Shown: positions 3,223-58,629 of the stretch, one piece after another
Position numbering within the stretch: the first letter of the stretch is position 1
Layout of the letters: each line of letters starts with the position of its first letter
Source of the DNA: Actinomycetota bacterium
GTDB taxonomy: Bacteria; Actinomycetota; Thermoleophilia; Solirubrobacterales; 70-9
Direction: 5' to 3'
NCBI GenBank assembly: GCA_038040415.1
Contig: JBBPIK010000006.1
Span: forward strand, 8,763 to 72,762
DNA length: 64,000 nt
The notes under the pieces: generated by a model
Seen by the model: only the letters and a program-made list of their open reading frames with translations
Databases searched by the model: none
What the model was told of the DNA's origin: nothing
Position numbers and translations under genes: made by a program

Positions 3223-4484
3223 GCGACCTGGGCCGAGACGTCATCTCGCGCACGGACGCCCAGGTGATCGGCACCGCCCTGGTGGAACGCACCGCGGCCG
3301 GACAGGCGCTTGCGCCCGAGCAGGAGCTGATGACGATCAACATGGGGCCGCACCATCCGGCCACCCACGGGGTGCTGCGGCTGCTGGTCAGCCTCGAGGG
3401 GGAGGTGGTCCGCGACCTGAAGCCGGTGGTGGGCTACGTGCACACGGGGATCGAGAAGAGCTGCGAGGACAAGTCCTACTGGAAGGCGATCCCGTTCGTG
3501 GAGCGGATGGACTACCTCTCCTACTTCTTCAACATGGAGGCGTTCGTCGGCTGCGTGGAGCGCCTGCTCGAGCTGGAGATCCCCCCGCGCGCCAAGTACC
3601 TGCGAGTGATCCACCTGGAGCTGAACCGGATCCACTCGCACCTCGTCTGGCTCGGAACCGGGGCCCTCGACCTCGGCGCGATGTCGATGTTCTTCTACTG
3701 CTTCCGGGACCGCGACCGGATCCTCGACCTGTTCGAGCTGTCGACCGGGCAGCGGATGCACACCCGCTACTTCCAGGTCGGGGGCGTCTTCGAGGACATC
3801 CCCGTCGGCTTCGAGCGCCAGGCCCGCGCCTTCTGCGCCGAGATGCCCTCGCGGCTCGATCAGTACGAGGCGATCCTCAACCGCAACGAGATCTTCTTGC
3901 AACGGACGAGGAACGTCGGCGTCGTCCCGCGCCAGCGACTGCTGGACCTGGGGGTAACGGGGCCGCTGCTGCGGGCCGCCGGCGAGCCGTGGGACCTGCG
4001 CAAGGTTGATCCCACCCTCGCCTATGCGGACTTCGACTTTCAGATTCCGGTGGGCACCGTGGGCGACGGCCACGATCGCTACCGCGTGCGGGTGCAGGAG
4101 ATGCGCGAGTCGGTGCGGATCGTCGAGCAGGCCCTCGACGGGCTGCCCGAGGGCCCGTGGATCGCCGACGACCGCAAGGTGGTGCTGCCGCCGCGCGACG
4201 AGCTCTCGACCTCGATGGAGGCCTTGATCCACCACTTCAAGCTGGTCACCGAGGGCTTCCGGGTGCCGCCGGGCGAGGCCTACTACCCGGTCGAGGGACC
4301 GCGCGGAGAGCTCGGCTGCTTCGTGGTCGCCGATGGCTCGGCGAAGCCGGCCCGAGTCCACTTCCGCGACCCCTCGTTCGTCAACCTGCAGGCGCTTCGC
4401 GACATGTCCGTGGGCGGCTACGTCGCCGACCTGATCCAGAACCTGGCGATGCTCGACCCGATCCTGGGAGGCATCGACCGATGA
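3219..4484 (+). CDS. nuoD: NADH-quinone oxidoreductase subunit D
   Basis: The 421-aa product has MGPHHPATHGVLRL, YVHTGIEK and a C-terminal DPILGGIDR. The start overlaps nuoC as ATGA. Confidence 0.95.
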   Translation: MSDLGRDVISRTDAQVIGTALVERTAAGQALAPEQELMTINMGPHHPATHGVLRLLVSLEGEVVRDLKPVVGYVHTGIEKSCEDKSYWKAIPFVERMDYLSYFFNMEAFVGCVERLLELEIPPRAKYLRVIHLELNRIHSHLVWLGTGALDLGAMSMFFYCFRDRDRILDLFELSTGQRMHTRYFQVGGVFEDIPVGFERQARAFCAEMPSRLDQYEAILNRNEIFLQRTRNVGVVPRQRLLDLGVTGPLLRAAGEPWDLRKVDPTLAYADFDFQIPVGTVGDGHDRYRVRVQEMRESVRIVEQALDGLPEGPWIADDRKVVLPPRDELSTSMEALIHHFKLVTEGFRVPPGEAYYPVEGPRGELGCFVVADGSAKPARVHFRDPSFVNLQALRDMSVGGYVADLIQNLAMLDPILGGIDR

Positions 4485-6550
4485 TGGACGCCGGGGCTAG
4501 GGACGAAGTCCCGGTGCACGCGGCTGAACCTGCCGCCCCGTCCGCGCCCGAACCCGCCGGAAACGTAGCCGAAGGCGAGGCTTCCGGCGGAGTTATTCCC
4601 GAGTTGCACGAGGTCGACGTGCCCGACGAGCTGCGGGAGGAAATCGAGACGGCGATGTCCCGCTACCCCGAGATCCGCTCGGCCGCGCTTCCTGCGCTCT
4701 GGGCCGTTCAGCGCGAGTACGGATGGTGCACCCCGGACGGCGTCCGCCAGGCGGCGGCGGTGATGGGGGTGACCCCCGGCTACCTCGAGTCCCTCGCGAC
4801 CTTCTACGACCTCTTCCGGACGACTCCGGTGGGGCGCCACCAGGTGCTCGTCTGCCACAACATCTCCTGCTGGATGCGAGGGGCGGACGACCTGCTCCGC
4901 GCCTTCAGCGAGGCCGCCGGCGCCGATGCCCACGAGGCCGATCACGGAGGCGCCAGCTCGGCGGACGGGGAGGTCTTCGTAATGGGCTTCGAGTGCCTCG
5001 GGGCGTGCGACATCGCGCCGATGGCCTCGATCGACGAGCGCTACTACGGGCCCCTGGACGCCGGCGACGCGGAGACCGCGGTGGAGCAGCTTCGCTCTGG
5101 CGCCGAGGTCCTACCGGACAAGGCGCTCGCCGACCGCCCCGCAGCCGGCGGCCCCGAGCCCGAACCCGCCCCTGAAACGCGGATGCTCTTCAAGAGCCTC
5201 GACGAGCCGGGGCTGGCCTCGATCGACACCTACCGCCGCCTGGGCGGATACAGCTCGCTGGAGCGCGCCTTCCGCGACCTGGAGCCGGAGGAGCTGCTTG
5301 GCGTGCTGGAGGAGTCCGGGCTCCGCGGCCGCGGCGGGGCCGGCTTCTCGATGGGAAGGAAGGCCTCCTTTCTTCCCCGCGGCGAGATGTCCAAGTACCT
5401 GTGCTGCAACGCCGACGAGTCCGAGCCGGGCGCGTTCAAGGACCGCGAGCTGATGCAGAAGAACCCGCACCAGCTGATCGAGGGGATCGCGATCGCGGCG
5501 CTGGCCGCCGGGGCCGGCTGGGGATTCGTGTTCATCCGGGGCGAGTACGCGGCGGTGGCCGACATCCTCGACCGCGCGGTCGCCGAGGCGTACGAGGCGG
5601 GCTACCTGGGCGAGAACATCCTCGGCAGTGGTTCCCGCGTCGAGGTGGTCGTCCACCGCGGCGCCGGCGCCTATATCTGCGGCGAGGAGACGGCGCTCCT
5701 CGACGCGCTTGAGGGAAAGCGCGGCAACCCGCGCCTGAAGCCGCCGTTCCCGGCGATTCAGGGCCTCTACGGAGGGCCCACCCTGATCAACAACGTCGAG
5801 ACGCTGTCCAACGTGCCCCACATCGTCGCCAACGGCGCCGAGTGGTTCAAGGGGCTCGGCACCGAGCAGTCGCCCGGCACCAAGGTCGTCTCGGTGTCGG
5901 GCTGCGTCCAGCGGCCCGGCAACTACGAAGTCGCACTCGGGATCCCCACCCGGGAGCTGATCTACGGGCTAGCCGGCGGCCCGCCGCCCGGACGCGAGGT
6001 CAAGGCCTGGTTCCCGGGTGGTTCCTCGGCGCCGATCCTAACCGCGGCCGAGCTCGACCTCCCATACAGCTTCGAGGCAATGGCCGACGCGGGCTCGATG
6101 CTCGGCTCGGGGTCGATCATCGTCGCCGACGACTCGATCTCGATTCCGGAGCTGGCGCTGCGCACGGCGCGCTTCTACCACCACGAGTCATGCGGAAAGT
6201 GCACGCCGTGTCGCGAAGGCACCAACTGGACGGTGAAGATGCTCGAGCGGGTGATCTCGGGCGAGGCGACCCCGATGGACCTCGACATCATCGCCTCGGT
6301 GCAGGAGAACATCATCGGCCACTGCCTGTGCGTGCTCGGTGACTCGATGGCGATGCCGGTTTCGAGCATGGTGGCGAAGTTCCGGGAGGAATTCGAAGAA
6401 CACATCCGACGAGTCGCAAGCGACTCGCCGGGTTCGGGCGCCGACGGGGCGGCAGGTTTGCACGCCCAGGGAGCCGAAGGCGACCGGTCATCCGGCGAAG
6501 CCGGAGGCGGGACTTCGTCCCTAGCCCCAGCGAGCGGTCGGCATGCGTGA
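4481..6550 (+). CDS. nuoEF: fused NADH-quinone oxidoreductase subunits E and F (single ORF)
   Basis: The frame of ORF 4157..6550 is open throughout. The NuoE part carries ALPALWAVQREYGW, VCHNISCWMRG and FECLGACDIAPM. A linker (DRPAAGGPEPEPAPETR) follows. The NuoF part carries GLRGRGGAGFSMGRK, NADESEPGAFKDR, ICGEETALL, ESCGKCTPCREG and CVLGD. The ATG at 4481 overlaps the nuoD stop, and in-frame TTG 4604 or GTG 4619 are alternative starts lying just after PR1 copy 1. Confidence 0.85.
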   Translation: MMDAGARDEVPVHAAEPAAPSAPEPAGNVAEGEASGGVIPELHEVDVPDELREEIETAMSRYPEIRSAALPALWAVQREYGWCTPDGVRQAAAVMGVTPGYLESLATFYDLFRTTPVGRHQVLVCHNISCWMRGADDLLRAFSEAAGADAHEADHGGASSADGEVFVMGFECLGACDIAPMASIDERYYGPLDAGDAETAVEQLRSGAEVLPDKALADRPAAGGPEPEPAPETRMLFKSLDEPGLASIDTYRRLGGYSSLERAFRDLEPEELLGVLEESGLRGRGGAGFSMGRKASFLPRGEMSKYLCCNADESEPGAFKDRELMQKNPHQLIEGIAIAALAAGAGWGFVFIRGEYAAVADILDRAVAEAYEAGYLGENILGSGSRVEVVVHRGAGAYICGEETALLDALEGKRGNPRLKPPFPAIQGLYGGPTLINNVETLSNVPHIVANGAEWFKGLGTEQSPGTKVVSVSGCVQRPGNYEVALGIPTRELIYGLAGGPPPGREVKAWFPGGSSAPILTAAELDLPYSFEAMADAGSMLGSGSIIVADDSISIPELALRTARFYHHESCGKCTPCREGTNWTVKMLERVISGEATPMDLDIIASVQENIIGHCLCVLGDSMAMPVSSMVAKFREEFEEHIRRVASDSPGSGADGAAGLHAQGAEGDRSSGEAGGGTSSLAPASGRHA
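4493..4600 (+). repeat. PR1 palindromic repeat, copy 1 (scaffold only, no cassette)
   Basis: GGGGCTAGGGACGAAGTCCC...CCTGCCGCCCCGTCCGCGCCCGAACCCGCCG...GCCGAAGGCGAGGCTTCCGGCGGAGTTATTCCC aligns by eye with the copies at 6398, 11507, 31620 and 40615. Confidence 0.85.
6398..6528 (-). repeat. PR1 palindromic repeat, copy 2 (inverted, one cassette)
   Basis: The reverse complement reads GGGGCTAGGGACGAAGTCCCG-CCTCCGGCTTCGCCGGATGACCGGTCGCCTTCGGCTCCCTG-...CCTGCCGCCCCGTCGGCGCCCGAACCCGGCG-hairpin-TCGGATGTGTTC. The copy lies inside the 3' end of the nuoEF ORF. Confidence 0.85.
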
Positions 6551-9014
6551 CCGTCCCCAGATCAGCTTCCTCGTCGACGGGGTCGAGGTGCCGGCCGAGG
6601 AGGGGACGATGCTGGTCGACGCCGCCAAGCACGGCGACGTCGAGATCCCGGTGTTCTGCTACGAGCCGAAGCTCGGCGAGCCGGTGGGCGCCTGCCGGAT
6701 GTGCCTGGTCGAGATCGAGGGGATCCCGAAGCTTCAGACCGCCTGCTCGACCCCGGTCCGCGATGGGATGGTCGTGTACACGCGCACCGACCGCGTGCAG
6801 GCTGCCCAGGAGTCCGTGGTGGAGTTCCTGCTCGTCAACCACCCGCTCGACTGCCCGGTCTGCGACAAGGGCGGCGAGTGCCCGCTGCAGGACATCGCGA
6901 TGGGCTGGGGTCCGGGGCGAAGCCGCGTGATCGACCCCAAGCGCCACTTCCAGAAGCCGATCCCGCTCTCGCCGCTGATCAAGATCGACCGCGAGCGATG
7001 CATCCTCTGCTACCGCTGCGTGCGCTTCAGCCAGGAGGTGGCCGAGGACGAGCAGCTCCAGCTCCTGGAGCGGGGCGCGTCGACCTTCGTGGGCACGTTC
7101 GACGACCGCCCCTACATCGCTCCCTTCCACGGCAACATCATCGAGCTCTGTCCGGTGGGGGCGCTGACCTCGGACGCCTACCGGTTCCGGGCCCGTCCGT
7201 GGGACATCGAGGACGCCGGCTCGATCTGCACGCTCTGTCCGAGCCAGTGCAACGTGATCCTGACGGTGCGCGACGAGCAGATCGAGCGCGTCCTCGCCCG
7301 CGACCATCCCGAGGTCGACGACGGTTGGCTGTGCGACAAGGGGCGGTTCGGCTACCAGATGGCGGAGTCCGGGGACCGGATCACGCAGCCGCTCGTCCGC
7401 CAGGGCGGCGAGCTTCGCCCCGCAGGCTGGGAGCAGGCGCTCGAAGCCGCGACGGCGAGCCTTCGTCGAGCCGGCGAGCGAACGGCCGCGATCGTCGGCG
7501 GAGGGTCCTCCAACGAGGAGGGTTACCTCGCGCAGCGGATCATCCGCCGCGCCCTCGGCTCGCCGCATGTGGACTCTCGCCCTCGCGGGGGGGCCAGCGA
7601 GCCGCCGCGCAAAAGCGTTGGCGGCCGGACCCCGCCGGACCCCGCCGCGCGCGACCTGCTCCTGGAGCTGTCGCGGCCCGAGCTGGCTGCAGGCGTTGCC
7701 GACCTCGATTCCGCCCAGTCGATCCTTGTAGTCGGCACCGACCCGCTGCACGTCATGCCGATCCTCGACCTGCGAATCCGCAAGGTCGTGCGGCGAAACG
7801 GCACCCGCCTGGCCGTGGCGACTGACCGCCCCAGCGCCCTGGACGGCGGCGCCGAGGAGACCGCCCGCTATGTGCCCGGCTTCACCAGGGGCTTTCTTTG
7901 GGCCCTGGCGGCGGAAGTCGGGCTCGAAGGCTACGAGCGGGGCCCGGGCGAGCTGGCCGGCGACGCAGAGCGGATTGCCGGTGTTTTGGAGCCGGGCTCG
8001 ACGGTCATCGTCTGGGGCGGGGAAGCCGATCGCGCGCTGGTCGACATCGCCGCCAAGCTGAACGCGAAGCTGCTCGAGATCCCGGACGGCGCCAACGCGC
8101 GGGGCCTGCGCGAAGTTGGATGCTTGCCCCACGCCGGGCCGGGGCTGTCGGAAGCCTCCGACGGCCGCAACGCGGGCGAGATCCGCGACGCCCTCGCGGC
8201 CAAAGAACTGGAGGCCGCGTTCCTGCTCAACGCCGACCCGGTTCGCGACTTCCCCGGAGGGCCTGCGTGGACCGAGGCGCTCGGCAAGGCGAAGTTCGTC
8301 CTCGCTGTGTCGATGTTCGAGAACGCCTCGACCAGGCACGCCGACGTCGTCTTCCCGGCCGAGTTCTACGCCGAGAAGGAAGGCACGGTCACCCATCCCG
8401 ACGGGCGCCTCCAGCGCCTCCGCCCAGGGGTGCCCCGGCCCGACGGCGTGCGCCCGATCTGGCAGGTGCTGGTGGAGCTCTCCGCGCTGCTCGGCGACGA
8501 GACGGGGATCGACTCGCCGCCCGAGGCGCTCTCCGCGATCGCTTCCGAGGTCCCGTTCTACGCGGGGATCACCCACGAGGAGATCGGCGGCCGCGGGGTC
8601 CGCTGGCAGGAGCGCGATGCGGCTTCGGCGTTTCCCGAGCGCGAAACGAACGGCGCCTCGATCTCGGGTTGGTTGAGCTTGGAAGGGGATGGCGATACGC
8701 ATACCGGACTACAGATCGGGACGTACCGCGATCTGTGGGCGTCCGAGGTGACCGATCGGAGCCCCGCGCTGAGGTTCCTGGCGCCGCGGCAAACGCTGGA
8801 GCTGTCACCCGCCGACGCGGATCGGCTGGGAGTGGTGCAGGGCGAGGAGGTTGACGTTCGCTCGAACGGAGCCAGCGTGCGGGCTCGCCTCGCGATCCGC
8901 GAGCGGATCAGGCCGGGGGCAGGCTTCCTGGTCGAGGGGACGGTCGAAGCGAACGCGAACGCGCTGGAGCCGGGCGTGCTCGTTGAGATCGCGAAGGTGG
9001 GAGGCGAGAAGTGA
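6543..9014 (+). CDS. nuoG: NADH-quinone oxidoreductase subunit G
   Basis: The 823-aa product carries Fe-S motifs [46 protein letters not shown] and CPVGAL, followed by a molybdopterin-oxidoreductase-like region. The ATG at 6543 overlaps the nuoEF stop by 8 nt. Confidence 0.9.
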
Positions 9015-10993: not shown

Positions 10994-11692
10994 ATGGTGG
11001 AGGTCGCCTTCTTCGCCGGGGCGATCGGCGCCGTCGCCGGGGCGGTGGGCGTGATCGCGTTGCGGAACCCCTTCTACAGCGTGCTGGCGCTGGTCGTCCA
11101 CCTGGTGGCCCTGGCCGGGCTGTTCTTGTTGCTGTACGCGCAATTCGTCGCCGCCGCCCAGGTGGTCGTCTATGCGGGCGCGGTGATGGTCCTGTACGTC
11201 TTCGTGGCCGCCTACGTGGGCGAGGTCGAGGAGCCGATCTGGGAGCCGATCCCGGGCCAGCGATTCCTGGCCCCACTGCTGGCCGCGGCGCTCTTCGTCG
11301 AGCTCTCGATCGCGATCCTGGGCACCGGGCTGTCTTCCCTCGACAGCGAGGGGCCGACGTTGCCGATCGGCTTCGGATCTCCGGAGGCGATCGGCAACCT
11401 GCTGCTGGAGCGCTTCCTGGTCGTCTTCGAGGCCGCCTCGATGCTCCTCCTCGTCGCCGCAGTCGGGGCGGTCGTCCTGGCGGGACGAACCAGGGTGGCA
11501 CCCGCCGGGGCCAGGGACGAAGTCCCGCATCCGGTTTCGCCGGATGATCGGTCGCCTTCGGCTCCCTACGCGGCTGAGCCTGCCGCCCCGTCCGCGCCCG
11601 AACCCGCCGCATCCGAGCAAGCTCGGATGACCGGTCGCCCTTCGGGCTCCCTGGTAGGCGAAGGCGAGGCTTCCGGCGGAGGGGTTCCCTAA
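10994..11692 (+). CDS. nuoJ: NADH-quinone oxidoreductase subunit J with repeat-encoded C-terminal tail
   Basis: The NuoJ core runs about 165 aa ([60 protein letters not shown]). About 67 further codons then run through PR1 copy 3 to a TAA that overlaps the nuoK ATG. Confidence 0.85.
11507..11689 (+). repeat. PR1 palindromic repeat, copy 3 (scaffold plus two cassettes)
   Basis: The scaffold is the same as copy 1. A roughly 42-bp cassette is inserted twice: CATCCGGTTTCGCCGGATGATCGGTCGCCTTCGGCTCCCT at 11528-11567 and CATCCGAGCAAGCTCGGATGACCGGTCGCCCTTCGGGCTCCCTG at 11610-11653. Confidence 0.85.
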
Positions 11693-11991
11693 TGGACGTC
11701 ACCTGGTATCTGGTTCTCTCGGCGCTCCTTTTCGCGATCGGCGCCGCCGGCGTGCTGATCCGGCGCAGCCCGCTGGTGATCCTGCTCTGCCTCGAGTTGA
11801 TGCTGAACGCGGGCAACCTCGCCCTGGTCGCCTTCGCCCGCGACCGGGGCGACCAGGACGGCCAGGTGTTCGCCTTGATCGTCATGGTCGTCGCCGCCTG
11901 CGAGGTGGTGGTCGGGCTGGGCCTGATCGTGGCGATGTTCAGGCGCCGGCTGCCGCTGAACGTCGATGAGATGAGGGACCTCCGCGGGTGA
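11692..11991 (+). CDS. nuoK: NADH-quinone oxidoreductase subunit K
   Basis: The 99-aa product has three TM segments and [17 protein letters not shown]. The start overlaps nuoJ as TAATG. Confidence 0.9.
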
Positions 11992-30722: not shown

Positions 30723-31646
30723 CTACCAGTGGGCGTCGTGATGCTCCATGACGCCGAGGCCGCGCTCGAGCGCCAGCCCCCCCGGAAGGGTGCCCGAGAA
30801 GCTGCCGAAGGGCTGACGGTACGTGTAGCGGACGAGGAGGCGGTTCTCCTGCTTTCGCCGCTCGCACTCGCCACTGAACTCGAGCCGCGACCCGTCGTCG
30901 AAGGCGATCGCCTCCAGGCCCTCGAAGCTGACGGGGCCCGGCTCGAAGGGCTCGCCGTCCACCCAGATCGCCCGCTCGGAGCGCTGTGGCGGGTCGTTGA
31001 TGCCGCTGACCAGGTTCCAGCCGACCGAGCGCCCGTCGCCGGTGCGGCCGACGCCGGCGGACCAGCTCCACACCGTGTGGCGAGGGTGATAGCCGGCCGA
31101 CTCGTCCTCCATCCCGCGCGCCTCGACCCGCCAGCGGCGCTCGCCGATGCGGACGTCGCACTCCACCGGGACATCGGCCCGCTTTCGGGTCCACACGTAC
31201 TCGCCCTCCCCGTTGGGACACACCGCCTCCACCCACCCGCCGGCGCCCGCGCGGAGGAAGGCCCGCACCTCGCCCTCGCTCCGGCGCGCCTCGATCCGCA
31301 CCAGCGAACCTTCGTCGGGCGCATAGTTGACCAGGCCTCCCTCGCCGTCGCCCGTTTCCGTCCAGACCTCGCCTCGCGCGCCTGGGAGCCGCAGCCGGGT
31401 GCGCTCCCACATCTCGCCGCGCTCGCGGTCCCAGATCGCCCAGAACGTCTGCCCGAGCTTTCCGACCTGGACCCGCGCGGCGCAGAGGAGCAACTCGTCG
31501 GAATAGGCGCCCAGGTAACGCCAGCGCTTGCGCCACCGGCCGCCGCGCCGCAGAGGCATCGGATTGGGGGGCAACGGCAGGTCGGGGCGGCCCGGACCGG
31601 GTCCGCGCCACGGAAGGCCCGGGCTGGCGACGAAGTCGCGATTCAC
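30723..31646 (-). CDS. DUF2804-like protein
   Basis: The 307-aa product has RWRYLG near the N-terminus and a C-terminal GVMEHHDAHW, as I recall for DUF2804. The GTG at 31646 lies inside PR1 copy 5, and ATG 31559 (MPLRRGG) is an alternative start. Confidence 0.6.
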   Translation of the reverse strand: MNRDFVASPGLPWRGPGPGRPDLPLPPNPMPLRRGGRWRKRWRYLGAYSDELLLCAARVQVGKLGQTFWAIWDRERGEMWERTRLRLPGARGEVWTETGDGEGGLVNYAPDEGSLVRIEARRSEGEVRAFLRAGAGGWVEAVCPNGEGEYVWTRKRADVPVECDVRIGERRWRVEARGMEDESAGYHPRHTVWSWSAGVGRTGDGRSVGWNLVSGINDPPQRSERAIWVDGEPFEPGPVSFEGLEAIAFDDGSRLEFSGECERRKQENRLLVRYTYRQPFGSFSGTLPGGLALERGLGVMEHHDAHW

Positions 31647-31727
31647 GTGCTTACGGCCTGCCGCCCCGTAACGCGCCCTGACCCGCCGACACCGGACGTG
31701 AAACGGAGGATGTCGGCGGAGTTGTTC
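31620..31727 (+). repeat. PR1 palindromic repeat, copy 5 (divergent loop insert)
   Basis: CGGGCTGGCGACGAAGTCGCG...CCTGCCGCCCCGTAACGCGCCCTGACCCGCCG-acaccggacgtgaaacggaggatgt-CGGCGGAGTTGTTC fills essentially the whole spacer between the carboxylase stop (31730) and the DUF2804-like gene. Confidence 0.8.
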
Positions 31728-31729
31728 AT

Positions 31730-33511
31730 CTATGCGATCTTCGCGATCACGTCGCCCGCAGCGACCGAGGTGCCCTCCTTGACCCCGAGCTTGCTGACCT
31801 TGCCGGGGCGGTGCGCGGTGATCTCGTTCTCCATCTTCATCGCCTCCACCACGCAGATCAGGGTGCCGTCCTCGACCTGGTCCCCGTTCTTCACCGCCAC
31901 CTTCAGGACGGTGCCCTGGATCGGAGAGACAAGGGTCTCGGTGGCGCTGGCTCCGGCGGCTCCGGCGGCGGCGCGCTCGCGGCGCGGCGGGCGGCGCAAC
32001 CCGGCGGCGGCGCCCGGGTTCGTCGCCCCCGCGGCGGGGATCACCTTGACGCTGTGGAGGCGCCCGTCGATCTCGACCTGGTAAACGCGCTCGGTGGCTC
32101 CTTCGGGCTCAACGCCCGGATCAGGCCCGAGGCCGGCAGCCGGGGACGCCTCGGGCGACGGCGCCAGCGACTTCAACCACTTGCGGTCGCCGAGCAGGTC
32201 GCGGCAGGTCTCGGCGTCCCGCCACTGGTCGGTGGCGAGGATCGCCCTGTGAAACGGGACCAGGGTCACGAGCCCGCCGATCTCGTACTCGCCCAAGGCC
32301 CGCAGCATCCTGGCCGTTGCCCGTTCGCGATCGGTGTCCCAGACGATCAGCTTGGCGATCAGCGGGTCATAAAGCGGGGTCACCTCCGAGCCGGCGACGA
32401 CGCCCGAGTCCACCCGCACACCAGGCCCACCCGGCTCGCGATAGGTGGTGATCCTTCCCGGCGCCGGTGCGAAGTTCTTGTGTGCGGCCTCGGCGTTGAT
32501 CCGGCACTCGATCGCGTGCCCGCGAAGCTCCACGTCCTCCTGGCTCACCGAGAGCTCCTCGCCGGCCGCAATCAGGACCTGCTCACGAACGATGTCCATC
32601 CCGGTGACCATCTCGGTGACGCAGTGCTCCACCTGGACGCGGGTGTTCATCTCCAGGAAGAAGTACTCCTCGCCGGTCTGAAGGCCCTCGACGGTCCCCG
32701 CCGACCGGTACTCGACCGCCGTTGCGGCGTCAGTGGCGACCTTGCCGATTCGCTCTCGCATCCCGTCGTCCACGTGCGGCGCCGGGGACTCCTCGACCAG
32801 CTTCTGGTGGCGGCGCTGAAGCGAGCAGTCACGCTCGCCGAGGTGAACCACGTTGCCGTGCGAGTCGGCCAGCACCTGGACCTCGACGTGCCGGGGGTCC
32901 TCCAGGTAGCGCTCCAGGTAGACGGTGGGGTCGGAGAAGAACTTCTCGCCCTCGCGCGCGGCCCCCTCGAACGCGTCCTCGAGCTCCTTCTCGGAGTTGG
33001 CGACCCGAAAGCCCTTCCCGCCTCCCCCGCCGGCGGCCTTGCAGGCCACCGGGTAGCCGATCTCCTTGGCCTCGCGCTTGGCGTCGGCGACGCTCTCGAC
33101 CGGCGAGGTTGTCCCGGGGACAATCGGCACGCCTGCCTCCGCCATCAACTCGCGGGCGCGGGTCTTCGATCCCATCGCCTCGATTGCGCTCGCCGGCGGC
33201 CCGATGAACGTCACACCGGCCTCCTCGCAGGCCGCAGCAAACTCGGCGTTCTCGGCCAGGAACCCGTAGCCGGGATGGACCGCTTCCGCCCCGGCCTTCT
33301 CGGCCGTCTCCAGCAGCCTGGCGATGCTCAGGTAGCTCTCGGCCGGCACCGGCGGCCCCAGCAGGTGGGCCTCATCCGCCTCGCCCACGTGGGGCGCGTC
33401 CCGGTCGGCCTCCGAGTAGACGCCAACCGAAGCGATCCCCATTTCCCTCAGAGTCCGCATGACGCGGATCGCGATCTCGCCCCGGTTGGCAACCAGGACC
33501 TTCTCGAACAT
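31730..33511 (-). CDS. acetyl/propionyl-CoA carboxylase alpha subunit (biotin carboxylase plus BCCP)
   Basis: The product starts MFEKVLVANRGEIAIRV, has an ATP-grasp core, and ends with the biotinyl motif EAMKMEN. Confidence 0.9.
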   Translation of the reverse strand: MFEKVLVANRGEIAIRVMRTLREMGIASVGVYSEADRDAPHVGEADEAHLLGPPVPAESYLSIARLLETAEKAGAEAVHPGYGFLAENAEFAAACEEAGVTFIGPPASAIEAMGSKTRARELMAEAGVPIVPGTTSPVESVADAKREAKEIGYPVACKAAGGGGGKGFRVANSEKELEDAFEGAAREGEKFFSDPTVYLERYLEDPRHVEVQVLADSHGNVVHLGERDCSLQRRHQKLVEESPAPHVDDGMRERIGKVATDAATAVEYRSAGTVEGLQTGEEYFFLEMNTRVQVEHCVTEMVTGMDIVREQVLIAAGEELSVSQEDVELRGHAIECRINAEAAHKNFAPAPGRITTYREPGGPGVRVDSGVVAGSEVTPLYDPLIAKLIVWDTDRERATARMLRALGEYEIGGLVTLVPFHRAILATDQWRDAETCRDLLGDRKWLKSLAPSPEASPAAGLGPDPGVEPEGATERVYQVEIDGRLHSVKVIPAAGATNPGAAAGLRRPPRRERAAAGAAGASATETLVSPIQGTVLKVAVKNGDQVEDGTLICVVEAMKMENEITAHRPGKVSKLGVKEGTSVAAGDVIAKIA

Positions 33512-39101: not shown

Positions 39102-39770
39102 CTAGGAGTCTTCGCGCTCGGGGTCCTGCTCGCCGGCCTGCGCGGGCTCCTCCTCCGCGGCGTCGGCGGCGGGCTCAGCTTCCTCTGCGGCGGGCGCTGC
39201 CTCCTCGCCAGACGGGGCGACCGGGGCTTCCTCCGCTGCCGGCTGGGCGGCGGCCGGGGCTTCCTCCGCTGCCGGCTGGGGGCTGGCCGGGGCTTCCTCC
39301 GCTGCGGGCTGGGGGGCCTCAGTGGGCTCCTCCCCTGGAGTGGGCTCGTCCCCTGGCGTCGATTCCGCGGCTGCGGGAGCCTCCTCCCGCCCCGCGGCGC
39401 CCTGGGGGCGGCGCCCGCCCCGAGCCGGGGGTGCGCCGACGGCGCTCTGCGGCGCCGACGGGACGATCGCCGGCGAGCGTGGGTCGACCTTGAAGATCCG
39501 GAAGCGCAGGACGCCGTCGGCAATCCGCAGGTTGTGGTTCAGATCGTCGAGCAGCCCTCCATCCGTTTCGAAGCGGAAGAAGCGATAGTCGGCCTCGGTG
39601 CGCTGCTCGATCTCATAGGCGAGCTTGCGCGTACCCCAGGACGTGTCCTGCTTGAGGGAGCCGCCTGACTCGATCCGCGTCCGCGCTTCGGCCGCGATCT
39701 GCTCCCGGCGTTCATCCGTGATGTCGGGATCGAGCATCAGGACGAGCTCGTATTCGCGGGAGGGACTCAA
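39102..39770 (-). CDS. rpsF: 30S ribosomal protein S6 with long acidic repeat-containing C-terminal extension
   Basis: The start codon is TTG. The S6 core runs about 100 aa (EYELVLMLDPD...WGTRKLAYEI...YRFFRFE). It is followed by about 120 aa of Ala/Pro/Glu-rich sequence that includes three copies of PQPAAEEAPA-type units. Confidence 0.85.
   Translation of the reverse strand: MSPSREYELVLMLDPDITDERREQIAAEARTRIESGGSLKQDTSWGTRKLAYEIEQRTEADYRFFRFETDGGLLDDLNHNLRIADGVLRFRIFKVDPRSPAIVPSAPQSAVGAPPARGGRRPQGAAGREEAPAAAESTPGDEPTPGEEPTEAPQPAAEEAPASPQPAAEEAPAAAQPAAEEAPVAPSGEEAAPAAEEAEPAADAAEEEPAQAGEQDPEREDS
39221..39319. repeat. 3 x 33-bp tandem repeat inside the rpsF tail
   Basis: The unit CCGGGGCTTCCTCCGCTGCCGGCTGGG-NNNNNN occurs at 39221, 39254 and 39287. 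An adjacent 2 x 18-bp repeat (AGTGGGCTCSTCCCCTGG) lies at 39321-39356. Confidence 0.85.
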
Positions 39771-40370: not shown

Positions 40371-40940
40371 ATGGGCAGCGGATCCCGCATTCGCTGGCGC
40401 AAGGTCGCCAAGCTCGCTCTCGGCGTGCTCGGCTGCCTGGCCTTGGTCGTGGGCCTGCCGAGCCTCATTCGGCGCCCCGAGCCGCCGCCGCTGGAGCCGG
40501 ACATCGGGCTGGCACACCTAGCGACGTCCCGGGAACCCGCGCATTCGACCCAGCGACCGGCGCCCGGCCCCGATCGCCGTGACGCCAAGACCCAAGGCAG
40601 GCCAGGCGGTCGGGCCTGCCGCCCCGCCAGCGCCCTAACCCGCCGCATCCGGCTCCGCCGGATGACCGGTCGCCTCCGGCTCCCTGGTAGCCGGAGGCGA
40701 GGCTTTCGGCGGAGTTGTTCAGGGACCCGATCCCAAGGCCGGCGGCGCCATGCCGGCGCCGGCCGTCCGACCCGTCGCGAACGGGGTCAACCCTCGACCG
40801 GCTCGACCGTCACCGACGTCTCGGCTCAGGTCCCCGTCCCCCCTGCCGGCGCGGCGCCTCCGCCGCCAACTGCCCCGCTGCGAGCCCAAGCGCAGGCGCC
40901 GCAGCCGGCCGTCGCGTCGGAGTTCGGATTCGAGCGCTGA
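40371..40940 (+). CDS. questionable ORF (N-terminal TM anchor; body runs through PR1 copy 4)
   Basis: The 189-aa product has only one convincing feature, the N-terminal hydrophobic segment (KLALGVLGCLALVVGLPSL). The rest is Arg/Pro-rich and partly encoded by the repeat. Confidence 0.3.
   Translation: MGSGSRIRWRKVAKLALGVLGCLALVVGLPSLIRRPEPPPLEPDIGLAHLATSREPAHSTQRPAPGPDRRDAKTQGRPGGRACRPASALTRRIRLRRMTGRLRLPGSRRRGFRRSCSGTRSQGRRRHAGAGRPTRRERGQPSTGSTVTDVSAQVPVPPAGAAPPPPTAPLRAQAQAPQPAVASEFGFER
40615..40720 (+). repeat. PR1 palindromic repeat, copy 4 (5' hairpin missing, one cassette)
   Basis: CCTGCCGCCCCGCCAGCGCCCTAACCCGCCG-CATCCGGCTCCGCCGGATGACCGGTCGCCTCCGGCTCCCTG-GTAGCCGGAGGCGAGGCTTTCGGCGGAGTTGTTC. 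Confidence 0.75.
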
Positions 40941-57393: not shown

Positions 57394-57963
57394 ATGAGTG
57401 ACCTTCAAGCGGCGCGCGCCACGCTCTTGGCCGAGCTTCGCGAGCACGCTCTGGTGTTCGGCGAGGTGACCCTGTCGAGCGGCCAGCGCGCCTCCTACTA
57501 CGTCGACGCCCGCCGCGCGATCCTGCGCCCGGCAGGCTTTCGCGCCGTGGGCGAGCTGCTCGCCGGCGCGGCGCGGGAGCTCGGCGCCGCCGCCGTCGGG
57601 GGGCCGGTGATGGCGGCGATCCCGCTTGCCTGCGCAGCGATAGGCGTGCCCGGCGGCGAGGGACTGGTCGGATTCTTCGTCCGCAGCGATCGCAAGCAGC
57701 ACGGCCTCCAGCGCTGGATCGAGGGACCGGTGGAAGCCGGAGCGCGCTGCCTGGTGGTCGAGGACACGGTGACCACCGGGCGCTCAACGGTGTCGGCGAT
57801 CGAGCGGATGCGCGCTGAGGGCCTCGAGGTGGCGGGGGCCGTCTGCGTGGTCGATCGCCTCGCCGGCGGTGGCGAGGCGATCGCCGATGCGGCCGGCGCG
57901 CCGTTCAAGGCGCTGGTCACGATCGACGAGCTCTATCCCGACCGACCCGACCGGGACCTTTAG
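57394..57963 (+). CDS. pyrE: orotate phosphoribosyltransferase
   Basis: The ATG at 57394 begins the ORF. FGEVTLSSGQRASYYVD and the PRPP-binding loop CLVVEDTVTTGRS are present. Confidence 0.9.
   Translation: MSDLQAARATLLAELREHALVFGEVTLSSGQRASYYVDARRAILRPAGFRAVGELLAGAARELGAAAVGGPVMAAIPLACAAIGVPGGEGLVGFFVRSDRKQHGLQRWIEGPVEAGARCLVVEDTVTTGRSTVSAIERMRAEGLEVAGAVCVVDRLAGGGEAIADAAGAPFKALVTIDELYPDRPDRDL
57889..57963 (+). repeat. direct repeat A (authentic pyrE 3' end)
   Basis: GCGGCCGGCGCGCCGTTCAAGGCGCTGGTCACGATCGACGAGCTCTATCCCGACCGACCCGACCGGGACCTTTAG is repeated at 58557-58629. Confidence 0.9.
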
Positions 57964-58556: not shown

Positions 58557-58629
58557 GCGGCCGGCGCCGTTCAAGGCGCTGGTCACGATCGACGAGCTCT
58601 ATCCCGACCGTCCCGACCGGGACCGGTAA
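58557..58629 (+). repeat. direct repeat B (orphan pyrE 3'-end fragment)
   Basis: About 69 of 73 aligned positions match repeat A by eye. There is a 2-nt deletion (GC), and the stop is TAA instead of TAG. No upstream pyrE body is present. Confidence 0.9.

Follow-up and report, generated by a model that had tools for sequence, protein, structure and literature searches.

The stretch of Actinomycetota DNA analyzed here, 64,000 nucleotides (nt) in length (GenBank assembly GCA_038040415.1, contig JBBPIK010000006.1, positions 8,763 to 72,762; hereafter the window), is 69.6% G+C and carries a nuo operon on its plus strand. Interspersed among its genes are five copies of a hairpin-rich repeat, PR1, three of which sit at junctions between nuo genes. 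PR1 is a family of small, probably non-autonomous, mosaic palindromic repeats, specific to a lineage of uncultured soil Solirubrobacterales. Its copies are structured and modular, vary in presence and absence, and are strongly concentrated at the ends of genes and at coding sites that tolerate insertion.

An earlier note on this DNA had aligned five related segments by eye, and all five are confirmed at about the coordinates that it gave. Pairwise blastn connects copy 2 with copy 3 (107 nt, 87% identity, E = 1e-31), copy 3 with copy 5 (118 nt, 83%, E = 5e-27), and copy 1 with copy 4 (111 nt, 72%, E = 8e-14). A covariance model derived from 53 copies, mostly from other genomes, recovers exactly five in the window: 4492-4600 (+), 6396-6532 (-), 11507-11689 (+), 31619-31729 (+), and 40597-40722 (+). 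One further match, at 2955-2997 (E = 0.0024), is weak and lies inside the conserved NuoC domain, and is taken as chance. The copies, together with one probable remnant, are as follows.

Copy 1: 4485-4600, plus strand; basic form consisting of 5′ hairpin, core, and 3′ hairpin; cassette-free; model score 126.9 bits, E = 3e-27.
Copy 2: 6396-6532, minus strand; antisense to the operon; one cassette between the 5′ hairpin and the core.
Copy 3: 11489-11689, plus strand; two cassettes, the first following the 5′ hairpin and the second within the loop of the 3′ hairpin.
Copy 4: 31619-31729, plus strand; basic form of the "TAAC" subtype; cassette-free; model score 108 bits.
Copy 5: 40597-40722, plus strand; 5′ hairpin absent; one cassette in the loop of the 3′ hairpin.
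Probable decayed remnant of a sixth copy: 8654-8712, plus strand; a 57-nt in-frame stretch in nuoG, seen in aligned orthologous nuoG segments.

Anatomy, structural conservation, and distribution

The anatomy of PR1, which ranges from ~95 to 220 nt in size, was read from an alignment of 53 simple copies. At the 5′ end, an optional RAAGGTGG module, sometimes tandemly repeated, precedes a conserved CGYYSGG-CTAG tag, whose CTAG stands beside the 5′ hairpin (C in 101/101 copies, T in 89, A in 99, and G in 100). This hairpin, H1, has the form G[C/G]GAC-GAA-GTC[G/C]C—a 5-bp stem with a C(GAA)G loop—and is separated by ~13 variable bases from an invariant unpaired core, CCTGCCGCCCCG-N3-4-GCGCCC-NAACCCG. 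The 3′ hairpin, H3, comprises 9-13 bp, of which the outer pairs are constant and the inner pairs vary among copies yet remain paired; its tip forms a second mini-hairpin, NNC-GAA-GNN. The element thus delimited begins with CGYYSGGGCTAG... and ends in the tail ...GGCGGAGTTATTC. The three-part scaffold with self-folding inverted repeats that the earlier note had described was drawn correctly, AACCCGCCG pairing with CGGCGGAGTT with one bulge, as were its GAA, TTC, and TTCG loops.

Nested in this scaffold is a cassette, K, a 42-nt unit of the form CATCCGG-N5-CCGGATGACCGGTCGCCTTCGGCTCCCT that is itself a hairpin with compensatory variants and that can be inserted in both directions at two slots, one behind H1 and the other within the loop of H3. 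Copies 1-5 contain 0, 1, 2, 0, and 1 cassettes, respectively; previous counts by eye were right for copies 1-3 and are here revised for copy 4 (0, not 1) and copy 5 (1, not 0). Cassette K also exists outside PR1, with 30 of 46 metagenome copies inside, and behaves like an independent nested mini-element. At the nuoI/nuoJ junction, just 5′ of nuoJ, it lies within the loop of another, shorter hairpin (CTCGCCGCC...GGCGGCGAG) in L103, L147, L026:4512, L090:651, and L016:4302 (labels of this form denote loci outside the window), and it also occurs inside or beside other genes in L123, L127, and L128.

Other parts of PR1 are modular as well. The 3′ unit, composed of the 3′ arm of H3 and the tail (21-24 nt), is tandemly repeated one to five times. 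Copies in L009, L041, L079, L050, and L098:7123 harbor an optional module of ~80 nt (CACGGCCTCGTGCGGACGGCTTCCCTCCGGTCGCCGTCTCGCCCTCGTCTTCGCGAACGCTCGCCATCCAGGCTCGCT) between the 5′ hairpin and the core, and L091, L004, L022, and L006 contain tandem arrays of a partial element, in which the core and 3′ hairpin, without the 5′ hairpin, recur two to three times head to tail.

Conservation of the hairpins is most evident in their compensatory variation. RNAalifold predicts 20 pairs, 12 of which exhibit compensatory changes, and three helices are strongly compensatory: the 5′ C(GAA)G hairpin, the long 3′ hairpin, and the mini-hairpin at its tip. Pairing statistics were computed on a structure slightly extended beyond that of RNAalifold, with 500 shuffles and slid pairing partners as controls. 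Paired cells account for 87% of the observed alignment and 75% in shuffles, and double-change cells number 123, compared to 44 in shuffles (none of the 500 reaches 123) and 3-13 with slid partners. This excess over both controls argues that the hairpins are selected at the nucleic acid level. Orthologous copies may bear different H3 "alleles," such as GGAAAC/GCTTCC, GACACC/GATGTC, and CAGACC/GATCTG, and identical alleles recur at unrelated loci, a pattern more suggestive of copies replacing or converting one another than of gradual compensatory drift.

A wider search for further copies, on which the earlier note had staked its claim of a repeat family, found many. In a collection of 185,579 species genomes, the exact core is present in 99 stretches from ~35 metagenome-assembled genomes (MAGs), nearly all labeled Solirubrobacterales, Thermoleophilaceae, Actinomycetes, or Actinomycetota and many of them from Danish soils. 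The covariance model identifies 147 copies (E < 1e-3) within 774 kb of core-bearing loci. Core matches in Salinisphaera (L010), Ilumatobacteraceae (L002), L057, and L096 consist of the core string without hairpins, look like chance or Ala/Pro-coding sequence, and were set aside. The core pattern is absent from the viral contigs scanned; Rfam returned no match for the whole window at gathering thresholds and none at E ≤ 1 for positions 11400-11800; and a literature search on repeats in Solirubrobacterales found nothing. Exact-core copies number ~3-10 per MAG and are diverged from one another, indicating an old family of moderate copy number; at five copies in 64 kb, the window is a region where they are densely packed.

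Gene junctions, reading frames, and occupied sites

Copies 1-3 lie inside long open frames that continue from or into NuoE (at its N-terminus), NuoF (at its C-terminus, with the element antisense), and NuoJ (at its C-terminus). Copy 1 is placed between the nuoD stop codon (4482-4484) and the conserved part of NuoE, co-oriented with the operon; its drawn boundary, 4485, is one nucleotide past that stop, and its first model-matched base, 4492, is 8 nt past it. The copy is stop-free in the frame of the ATG at 4481, which overlaps the nuoD stop, and it contains a GGAG (4588-4591) whose second G is followed by 11 nt up to an in-frame TTG (4603-4605), an alternative nuoE start. The NuoE Pfam domain begins at residue 56, leaving copy 1 outside it, and orthologues of the copy are present in L008 and L012. 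Copy 2, whose 3′ hairpin is a short variant (GAGTCGC-TTGC-GACTCG), lies within the C-terminal tail of the NuoF open reading frame (ORF), a few bases 5′ of the nuoG ATG (6543). It, too, falls outside the Pfam domains, the last of which ends at residue 641 of 689, and its orthologues occupy the nuoF/nuoG junction in at least eight other genomes. Copy 3 supplies the final ~70 codons of the NuoJ ORF, again outside Pfam domains; the stop codon of this ORF overlaps the nuoK start (TAATG), and the GGAGG of the copy lies 10 nt (counted after GGAG) 5′ of the nuoK ATG. The same junction holds cassette-free copies in L026 and L055.

The remaining copies reside outside the nuo operon. Copy 4 is antisense to a biotin carboxylase gene (31730-33511, minus strand) and starts 2 nt past its stop codon, with orthologues in L038 and L052. 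Copy 5 is located between rpsF and a family-20 glycosyltransferase gene of the trehalose-6-phosphate synthase type, where there is no Pfam-recognizable ORF. At the site of the nuoG remnant, L026, L012, L016, and L099 carry a full in-frame copy.

In the window, nuoE and nuoF constitute one uninterrupted ORF of 689 codons (4481-6550) that contains both Pfam domain sets; no stop codon intervenes from ...PAPETR to MLFKSL.... Either NuoE and NuoF are fused or a stop codon has been lost. In L008, the ORF through the element stops ~724 nt past it, suggesting separate nuoE and nuoF genes there.

Across the family, flanking coding frames were called from codon-position G+C for 84 full analyzable copies. 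Genes on both sides are co-oriented with the element in 26 and on the opposite strand in 18, with 8 copies between convergent and 3 between divergent genes; a minority of copies are intragenic, and most are extragenic, 3′ of genes. The 3′ end is the precise end of PR1 relative to genes. Where the gene at the 3′ side is on the opposite strand, its stop codon falls -7 to +5 nt from the element end in 24 of 34 cases (typically TGA directly followed by ATAACTCC...). Where it is co-oriented, the GGAG of the tail, which forms part of the H3 stem and is often extended to GGAGG, lies 8-12 nt 5′ of the start codon in 8 of 23. These well-spaced cases include nuoK in three genomes, as well as atpH-like and hemA-like genes that were recognized from their N-terminal translations alone and not by Pfam. 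Fifteen same-strand upstream genes stop 10-45 nt 5′ of the element; others stop inside it, and seven read through to a stop at its 3′ end, copy 3 included.

One or two frames per strand are stop-free in PR1. One forward frame is open in 74% of copies and encodes the peptide G-A-[SR]-D-E-V-x-V-x-A-A-E-P-A-A-P-x-A-P-E-P-A-G-x-x-x-E-x-E-x-x-G-G-V; a second is closed by the TAG of CTAG in 99%. Copies truly internal to proteins exist in the E2 acyltransferase of L090, where they separate lipoyl domain 1 from lipoyl domain 2 and the latter from the E3-binding domain (with orthologues of these linker copies in L019, L032, L067, and L093); in the DEAD domain of the Lhr helicase in L029; and in NuoG, between the Molybdopterin and Molydop_binding domains, in the four loci named above. 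In all three proteins, Pfam domains flank the copy on both sides. The earlier statement that PR1 has no ORF of its own therefore holds, but it overlooks the stop-free frames, the read-through copies, and the in-frame copies inside genes. Its further observations, that the element occurs in both orientations and at nuo gene junctions, are upheld. The alternative that it had itself raised, a conserved protein domain at equivalent positions, fails: the element occurs either way round, between genes, and within genes that are not related to one another, and the nuoJ/nuoK junction can lack it beside an identical NuoK.

Comparison of equivalent sites reveals gain, loss, and reversal. At nuoH/nuoI, the window (ACGTGAGCGAAGAG) and L016 lack a copy; L026 and L055 have one, flanked on both sides by CGTGA, which keeps the nuoH stop on the left and a nuoI start on the right. 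Copies at nuoD/nuoE are flanked by direct repeats of GATGAG (L062) or CGATGA (L008), and L092 is filled at a site where L086 reads GATGATC. Direct repeats of 5-6 nt were seen in four junction cases (CGTGA, GATGAG, CGATGA, and TCATC); most copies have none. The nuoD/nuoE copy runs in the direction of the operon in the window, L008, L012, L099, and L007 and antisense in L018, L062, and L046. Similarly, at a site upstream of dnaE2, the copies of L077 and L070 are opposite in orientation to that of L058, and L075 has no copy. Junctions that accept both orientations are either insertion hot spots or sites of in-place inversion. The nuoJ/nuoK junction has no element in two metagenome contigs, L100 and L102, that encode identical NuoK. 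These contigs differ from each other by 17-18 nt at this junction (L100:200-235 and L102:60-90), where L100 reads ...TCGCAGTAGTGGAGAGGTACCACTAGATG, with a second TAG, and L102 reads ...TCGCACTAGATG; the region resembles the 5′ hairpin minus its loop.

The window has three other repeat-containing features. The ribosomal protein S6 ORF (39105-39770, minus strand) encodes 222 residues, with the S6 domain at residues 6-94 and a long tail containing 33-nt tandem repeats (39133-39337). Between 59568 and 60800, three to four repeats ~400 nt apart, each with ...CTCCACGTTCTCCTGCGACAT, look like tandem paralogous small minus-strand genes with a conserved N-terminus. A 61-nt direct repeat, 98% identical, occurs at 57898-57958 and 58564-58624 (666 nt spacing).

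Origin and maintenance of the copies

Several familiar identities do not fit. PR1 is not an insertion sequence (IS) element, having neither an ORF nor terminal inverted repeats, and not a CRISPR array, lacking regular spacing—as the earlier note had also judged, along with its being larger and more structured than a simple repetitive extragenic palindromic (REP) sequence. Its occurrence in many genomes, its compensatory hairpins, and its variable nested cassette support that judgment. Nor does PR1 possess the IS-matching terminal inverted repeats of a classical miniature inverted-repeat transposable element, or the T-run of an intrinsic terminator, and its copies lie inside operons.

PR1 probably owes its spread to past transposition as a non-autonomous element. 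The enzyme would have been supplied in trans. More speculatively, it would probably act on folded single-stranded DNA, as RAYT/IS200-type enzymes do on a tetranucleotide beside a hairpin, here CTAG rather than GTAG (PMC3733652). The C(GAA)G loop of PR1 is known from d(GCGAAGC), a DNA mini-hairpin of exceptional stability; this hints, but does not prove, that the form that matters is single-stranded DNA. Insertion would prefer stop codons and overlapping stop/start signals (ATGA, GTGA) and would duplicate them. Where G+C is 70% and such overlapping signals are many, this duplication would leave both genes intact, and target choice, selection, or both would account for the bias toward junctions. 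Copies may survive since their stop-free frames encode a flexible Ala/Pro/Gly/Glu peptide, and many would now be fixed and partly co-opted.

A series of observations weighs against past transposition. The ends of PR1 form no terminal inverted repeats beyond a 6-7 nt CGCCGG/CCGGCG match, itself part of an internal hairpin. Neither a transposase nor an autonomous copy was found between the three inverted hairpin pairs checked outside the nuo operon (those of L003 excluded), as read by Pfam or from sequence. No REPtron-like arrangement, with a small gene bracketed by 5′ hairpins in inverted orientation, emerged; the pairs enclose ordinary genes, namely nuo genes, GST, gamma-glutamyltranspeptidase (by Pfam), and a dnaE2-like N-terminus in L070 (by sequence reading). 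No gene for a RAYT (an IS200/IS605-like Y1 transposase) was noticed in ~1 Mb of DNA around copies, in a non-exhaustive look without a whole-genome scan. Copies within one genome are 75-92% identical and never identical, and thus give no sign of recent movement. The junction direct repeats contain stop/start signals, so that selection rather than insertion chemistry could explain them. The "empty" nuoJ/nuoK site of L102 resembles the element 5′ end and may be a deletion remnant instead of a never-occupied site. Many positions are common to several species, as would be expected of an old element with a possible function no less than of a selfish one. Finally, folding of single sequences barely surpasses shuffles in DNA of ~70% G+C, with z-scores of -0.6 to -4.3 (copy 5, folded as DNA, reaches -46.7 kcal/mol, z = -4.3); because these scores are weak in such G+C-rich DNA, covariation was used in place of folding energies.

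A rival reading is that PR1 is a host-selected, cis-acting RNA element of polycistronic mRNAs, either a stabilizer akin to REPs and bacterial interspersed mosaic elements (BIMEs) or a signal for intercistronic processing or coupling. It would be kept for tuning the expression of neighboring genes relative to one another in highly expressed operons (nuo, ribosomal proteins, ATP synthase, and 2-oxoacid dehydrogenase), its mobility irrelevant or extinct. Preservation of helices by compensatory change accords with such a role, as do the age and divergence of copies within genomes, their location almost always downstream of coding regions, the GGAG(G) within the 3′ hairpin stem at a suitable distance from start codons, and the positions shared by many species (nuoD/E, nuoF/G, nuoJ/K, the junction 5′ of the L30 gene, and the linkers of E2). 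Against this reading, PR1 is often found either way round relative to transcription: 26 copies are flanked on both sides by co-oriented genes and 18 by genes on the opposite strand, and a single junction can hold either orientation. Moreover, in close relatives a given site may lack the copy or hold a decayed one, with no substitute; some copies lie inside coding sequence; the strictly invariant core is unpaired and has no Rfam match; and C(GAA)G loops typify very stable hairpins of DNA rather than of RNA. On balance, a cis-acting RNA as the essence of PR1 appears unlikely.

The open frame raises a different prospect, that PR1 is a protein-coding module, an Ala/Pro-rich flexible linker (AEPAAPxAPEPA..., similar to native E2 linkers) spread by recombination, with the nucleotide repeats a by-product. 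The frame that is open in most copies, with its conserved peptide, is indeed the one used in the E2 linkers, Lhr, NuoG, the NuoJ tail, and the NuoE leader. However, many copies are intergenic or antisense to genes, and coding constraint does not predict the paired changes in stems. Length variants of one nucleotide shift the frame in the 3′ half and retain the hairpin, from which it follows that the peptide is tolerated, not selected. Searches with the element peptide yielded only 8 matches in a library of 1.84 billion proteins and 1 in a library of 5.8 billion, mostly short ORFs, although the query is short and compositionally biased and such counts do not measure how often copies are translated. 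A linker module at the origin of the family is accordingly highly improbable.

Scarcely any weight attaches to the idea that the copies are not transposable units and serve as sites for a site-specific enzyme, whether attC-like folded single-strand sites or targets of a host nuclease or defense system: the 3′ hairpin, with conserved outer boxes (AAC...GTT), a covarying center, and a bulged base, is loosely attC-like, and CTAG beside the 5′ hairpin recalls the GTAG tag of REPs cut by RAYT (PMC3733652), but the attC R-box consensus is not fitted, the copies are scattered in core operons in both orientations without cassette arrays, and no integrase or other recombinase was seen near them. An attC site proper is rejected, since its consensus RYYYAAC...GTTRRRY matches CCCGAAC...GTTATTC of PR1 only in AAC/GTT, and same-orientation arrays are lacking.

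Co-oriented copies could donate to the downstream gene a GGAG(G) ribosome-binding site that is masked in H3; ribosomes reading through the stop-free frame would open H3 and thereby couple translation of the two genes. Internal copies could act as flexible interdomain linkers. Co-option in these two forms is a serious possibility, albeit one that falls somewhat short of probable.

Relation to known repeat families and implications

Two aspects of PR1 have precedents, as mosaic palindromic repeats (BIME, BOX) and in-frame palindromic repeats (Rickettsia palindromic elements, intragenic REPs) are already known kinds (PMC10969869, PMC3733652); in this respect, its unusualness had been overstated. 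Rickettsia palindromic elements (RPEs) are in-frame palindromic insertions in genes that add a conserved peptide at permissive sites (PMC10969869). Like PR1, they are palindromic interspersed repeats (~100-150 nt) without a known transposase, and PR1 likewise forms in-frame parts of housekeeping genes that are not related to one another (E2, Lhr, NuoG, and the tails of NuoJ and NuoF). The likeness is one of behavior only; the hosts of PR1 belong to a different, G+C-rich phylum (Actinomycetota), and homology is very unlikely by phylum and base composition. PR1 is also commoner at gene junctions than inside genes, and it has a nested cassette and tandem 3′ units; its tag is CTAG, whereas the RPE end tag is CGTC (PMC3733652).

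The REPs of Gammaproteobacteria consist of a hairpin with a conserved GTAG tetranucleotide that is cut by RAYT, and REP/BIME sequences, like PR1, tend to separate genes that share a direction or converge, and seldom divergent genes (PMC3733652). The two share a hairpin with an adjacent conserved tetranucleotide and mosaic combinations of modules, and some REPs are intragenic, too. In contrast, the PR1 tag is neither GTAG nor CGTC, its unit is three to five times longer and contains an invariant unpaired core, and its copy number seems to be in the tens per genome, not the hundreds.

The BOX elements of pneumococci insert into one another (PMC10969869), comparable to the nesting in PR1, and, like PR1, have constant modules at their ends and an internal module whose number varies. 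They are unrelated to PR1 in sequence and lie between genes, and the PR1 cassette is found in both orientations and in two different slots. A last parallel is provided by the mycobacterial interspersed repetitive units (MIRUs), which resemble PR1 in occupying actinobacterial operon junctions with bridging open frames (copy 3, L026, L055, and L083 among PR1 cases). Supply et al. in 1997 reportedly described MIRU frames as overlapping the stop and start of flanking genes, keeping translational coupling of the kind suggested above for co-oriented PR1 copies. MIRUs are tandem direct repeats without marked hairpins, however, and PR1 is a single structured unit that is also found antisense and within genes. 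By sequence or defining tags, PR1 appears to belong to none of the RPE, REP/BIME, BOX, or MIRU families and to constitute a new one.

With PR1, a poorly known soil lineage, most of it uncultured, gains a well-defined repeat family with structural support. PR1 also provides a second clear example, beyond Rickettsia, of palindromic repeats tolerated in frame in essential genes and at junctions of essential operons. Its copies create length variation in conserved proteins and distort gene calls, as seen in the extended NuoE, NuoF, and NuoJ ORFs and their ambiguous start codons, and the shortest of the contigs that carry identical NuoK may reflect short-read assemblies breaking at such repeats. 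If co-option holds, the family would illustrate how a selfish repeat supplies ribosome-binding sites and linker peptides to its host. A bolder conjecture, and a decidedly unlikely one, is that PR1 may home to stop codons and overlapping stop-start signals by an undescribed hairpin-dependent single-strand mechanism, to be regularly domesticated thereafter as an "intercistronic adaptor." Were this true, such an adaptor, uniting a stop-free frame, a hairpin-hidden ribosome-binding site, and a linker peptide, would be a systematic source of operon spacers and protein linkers across a bacterial order.

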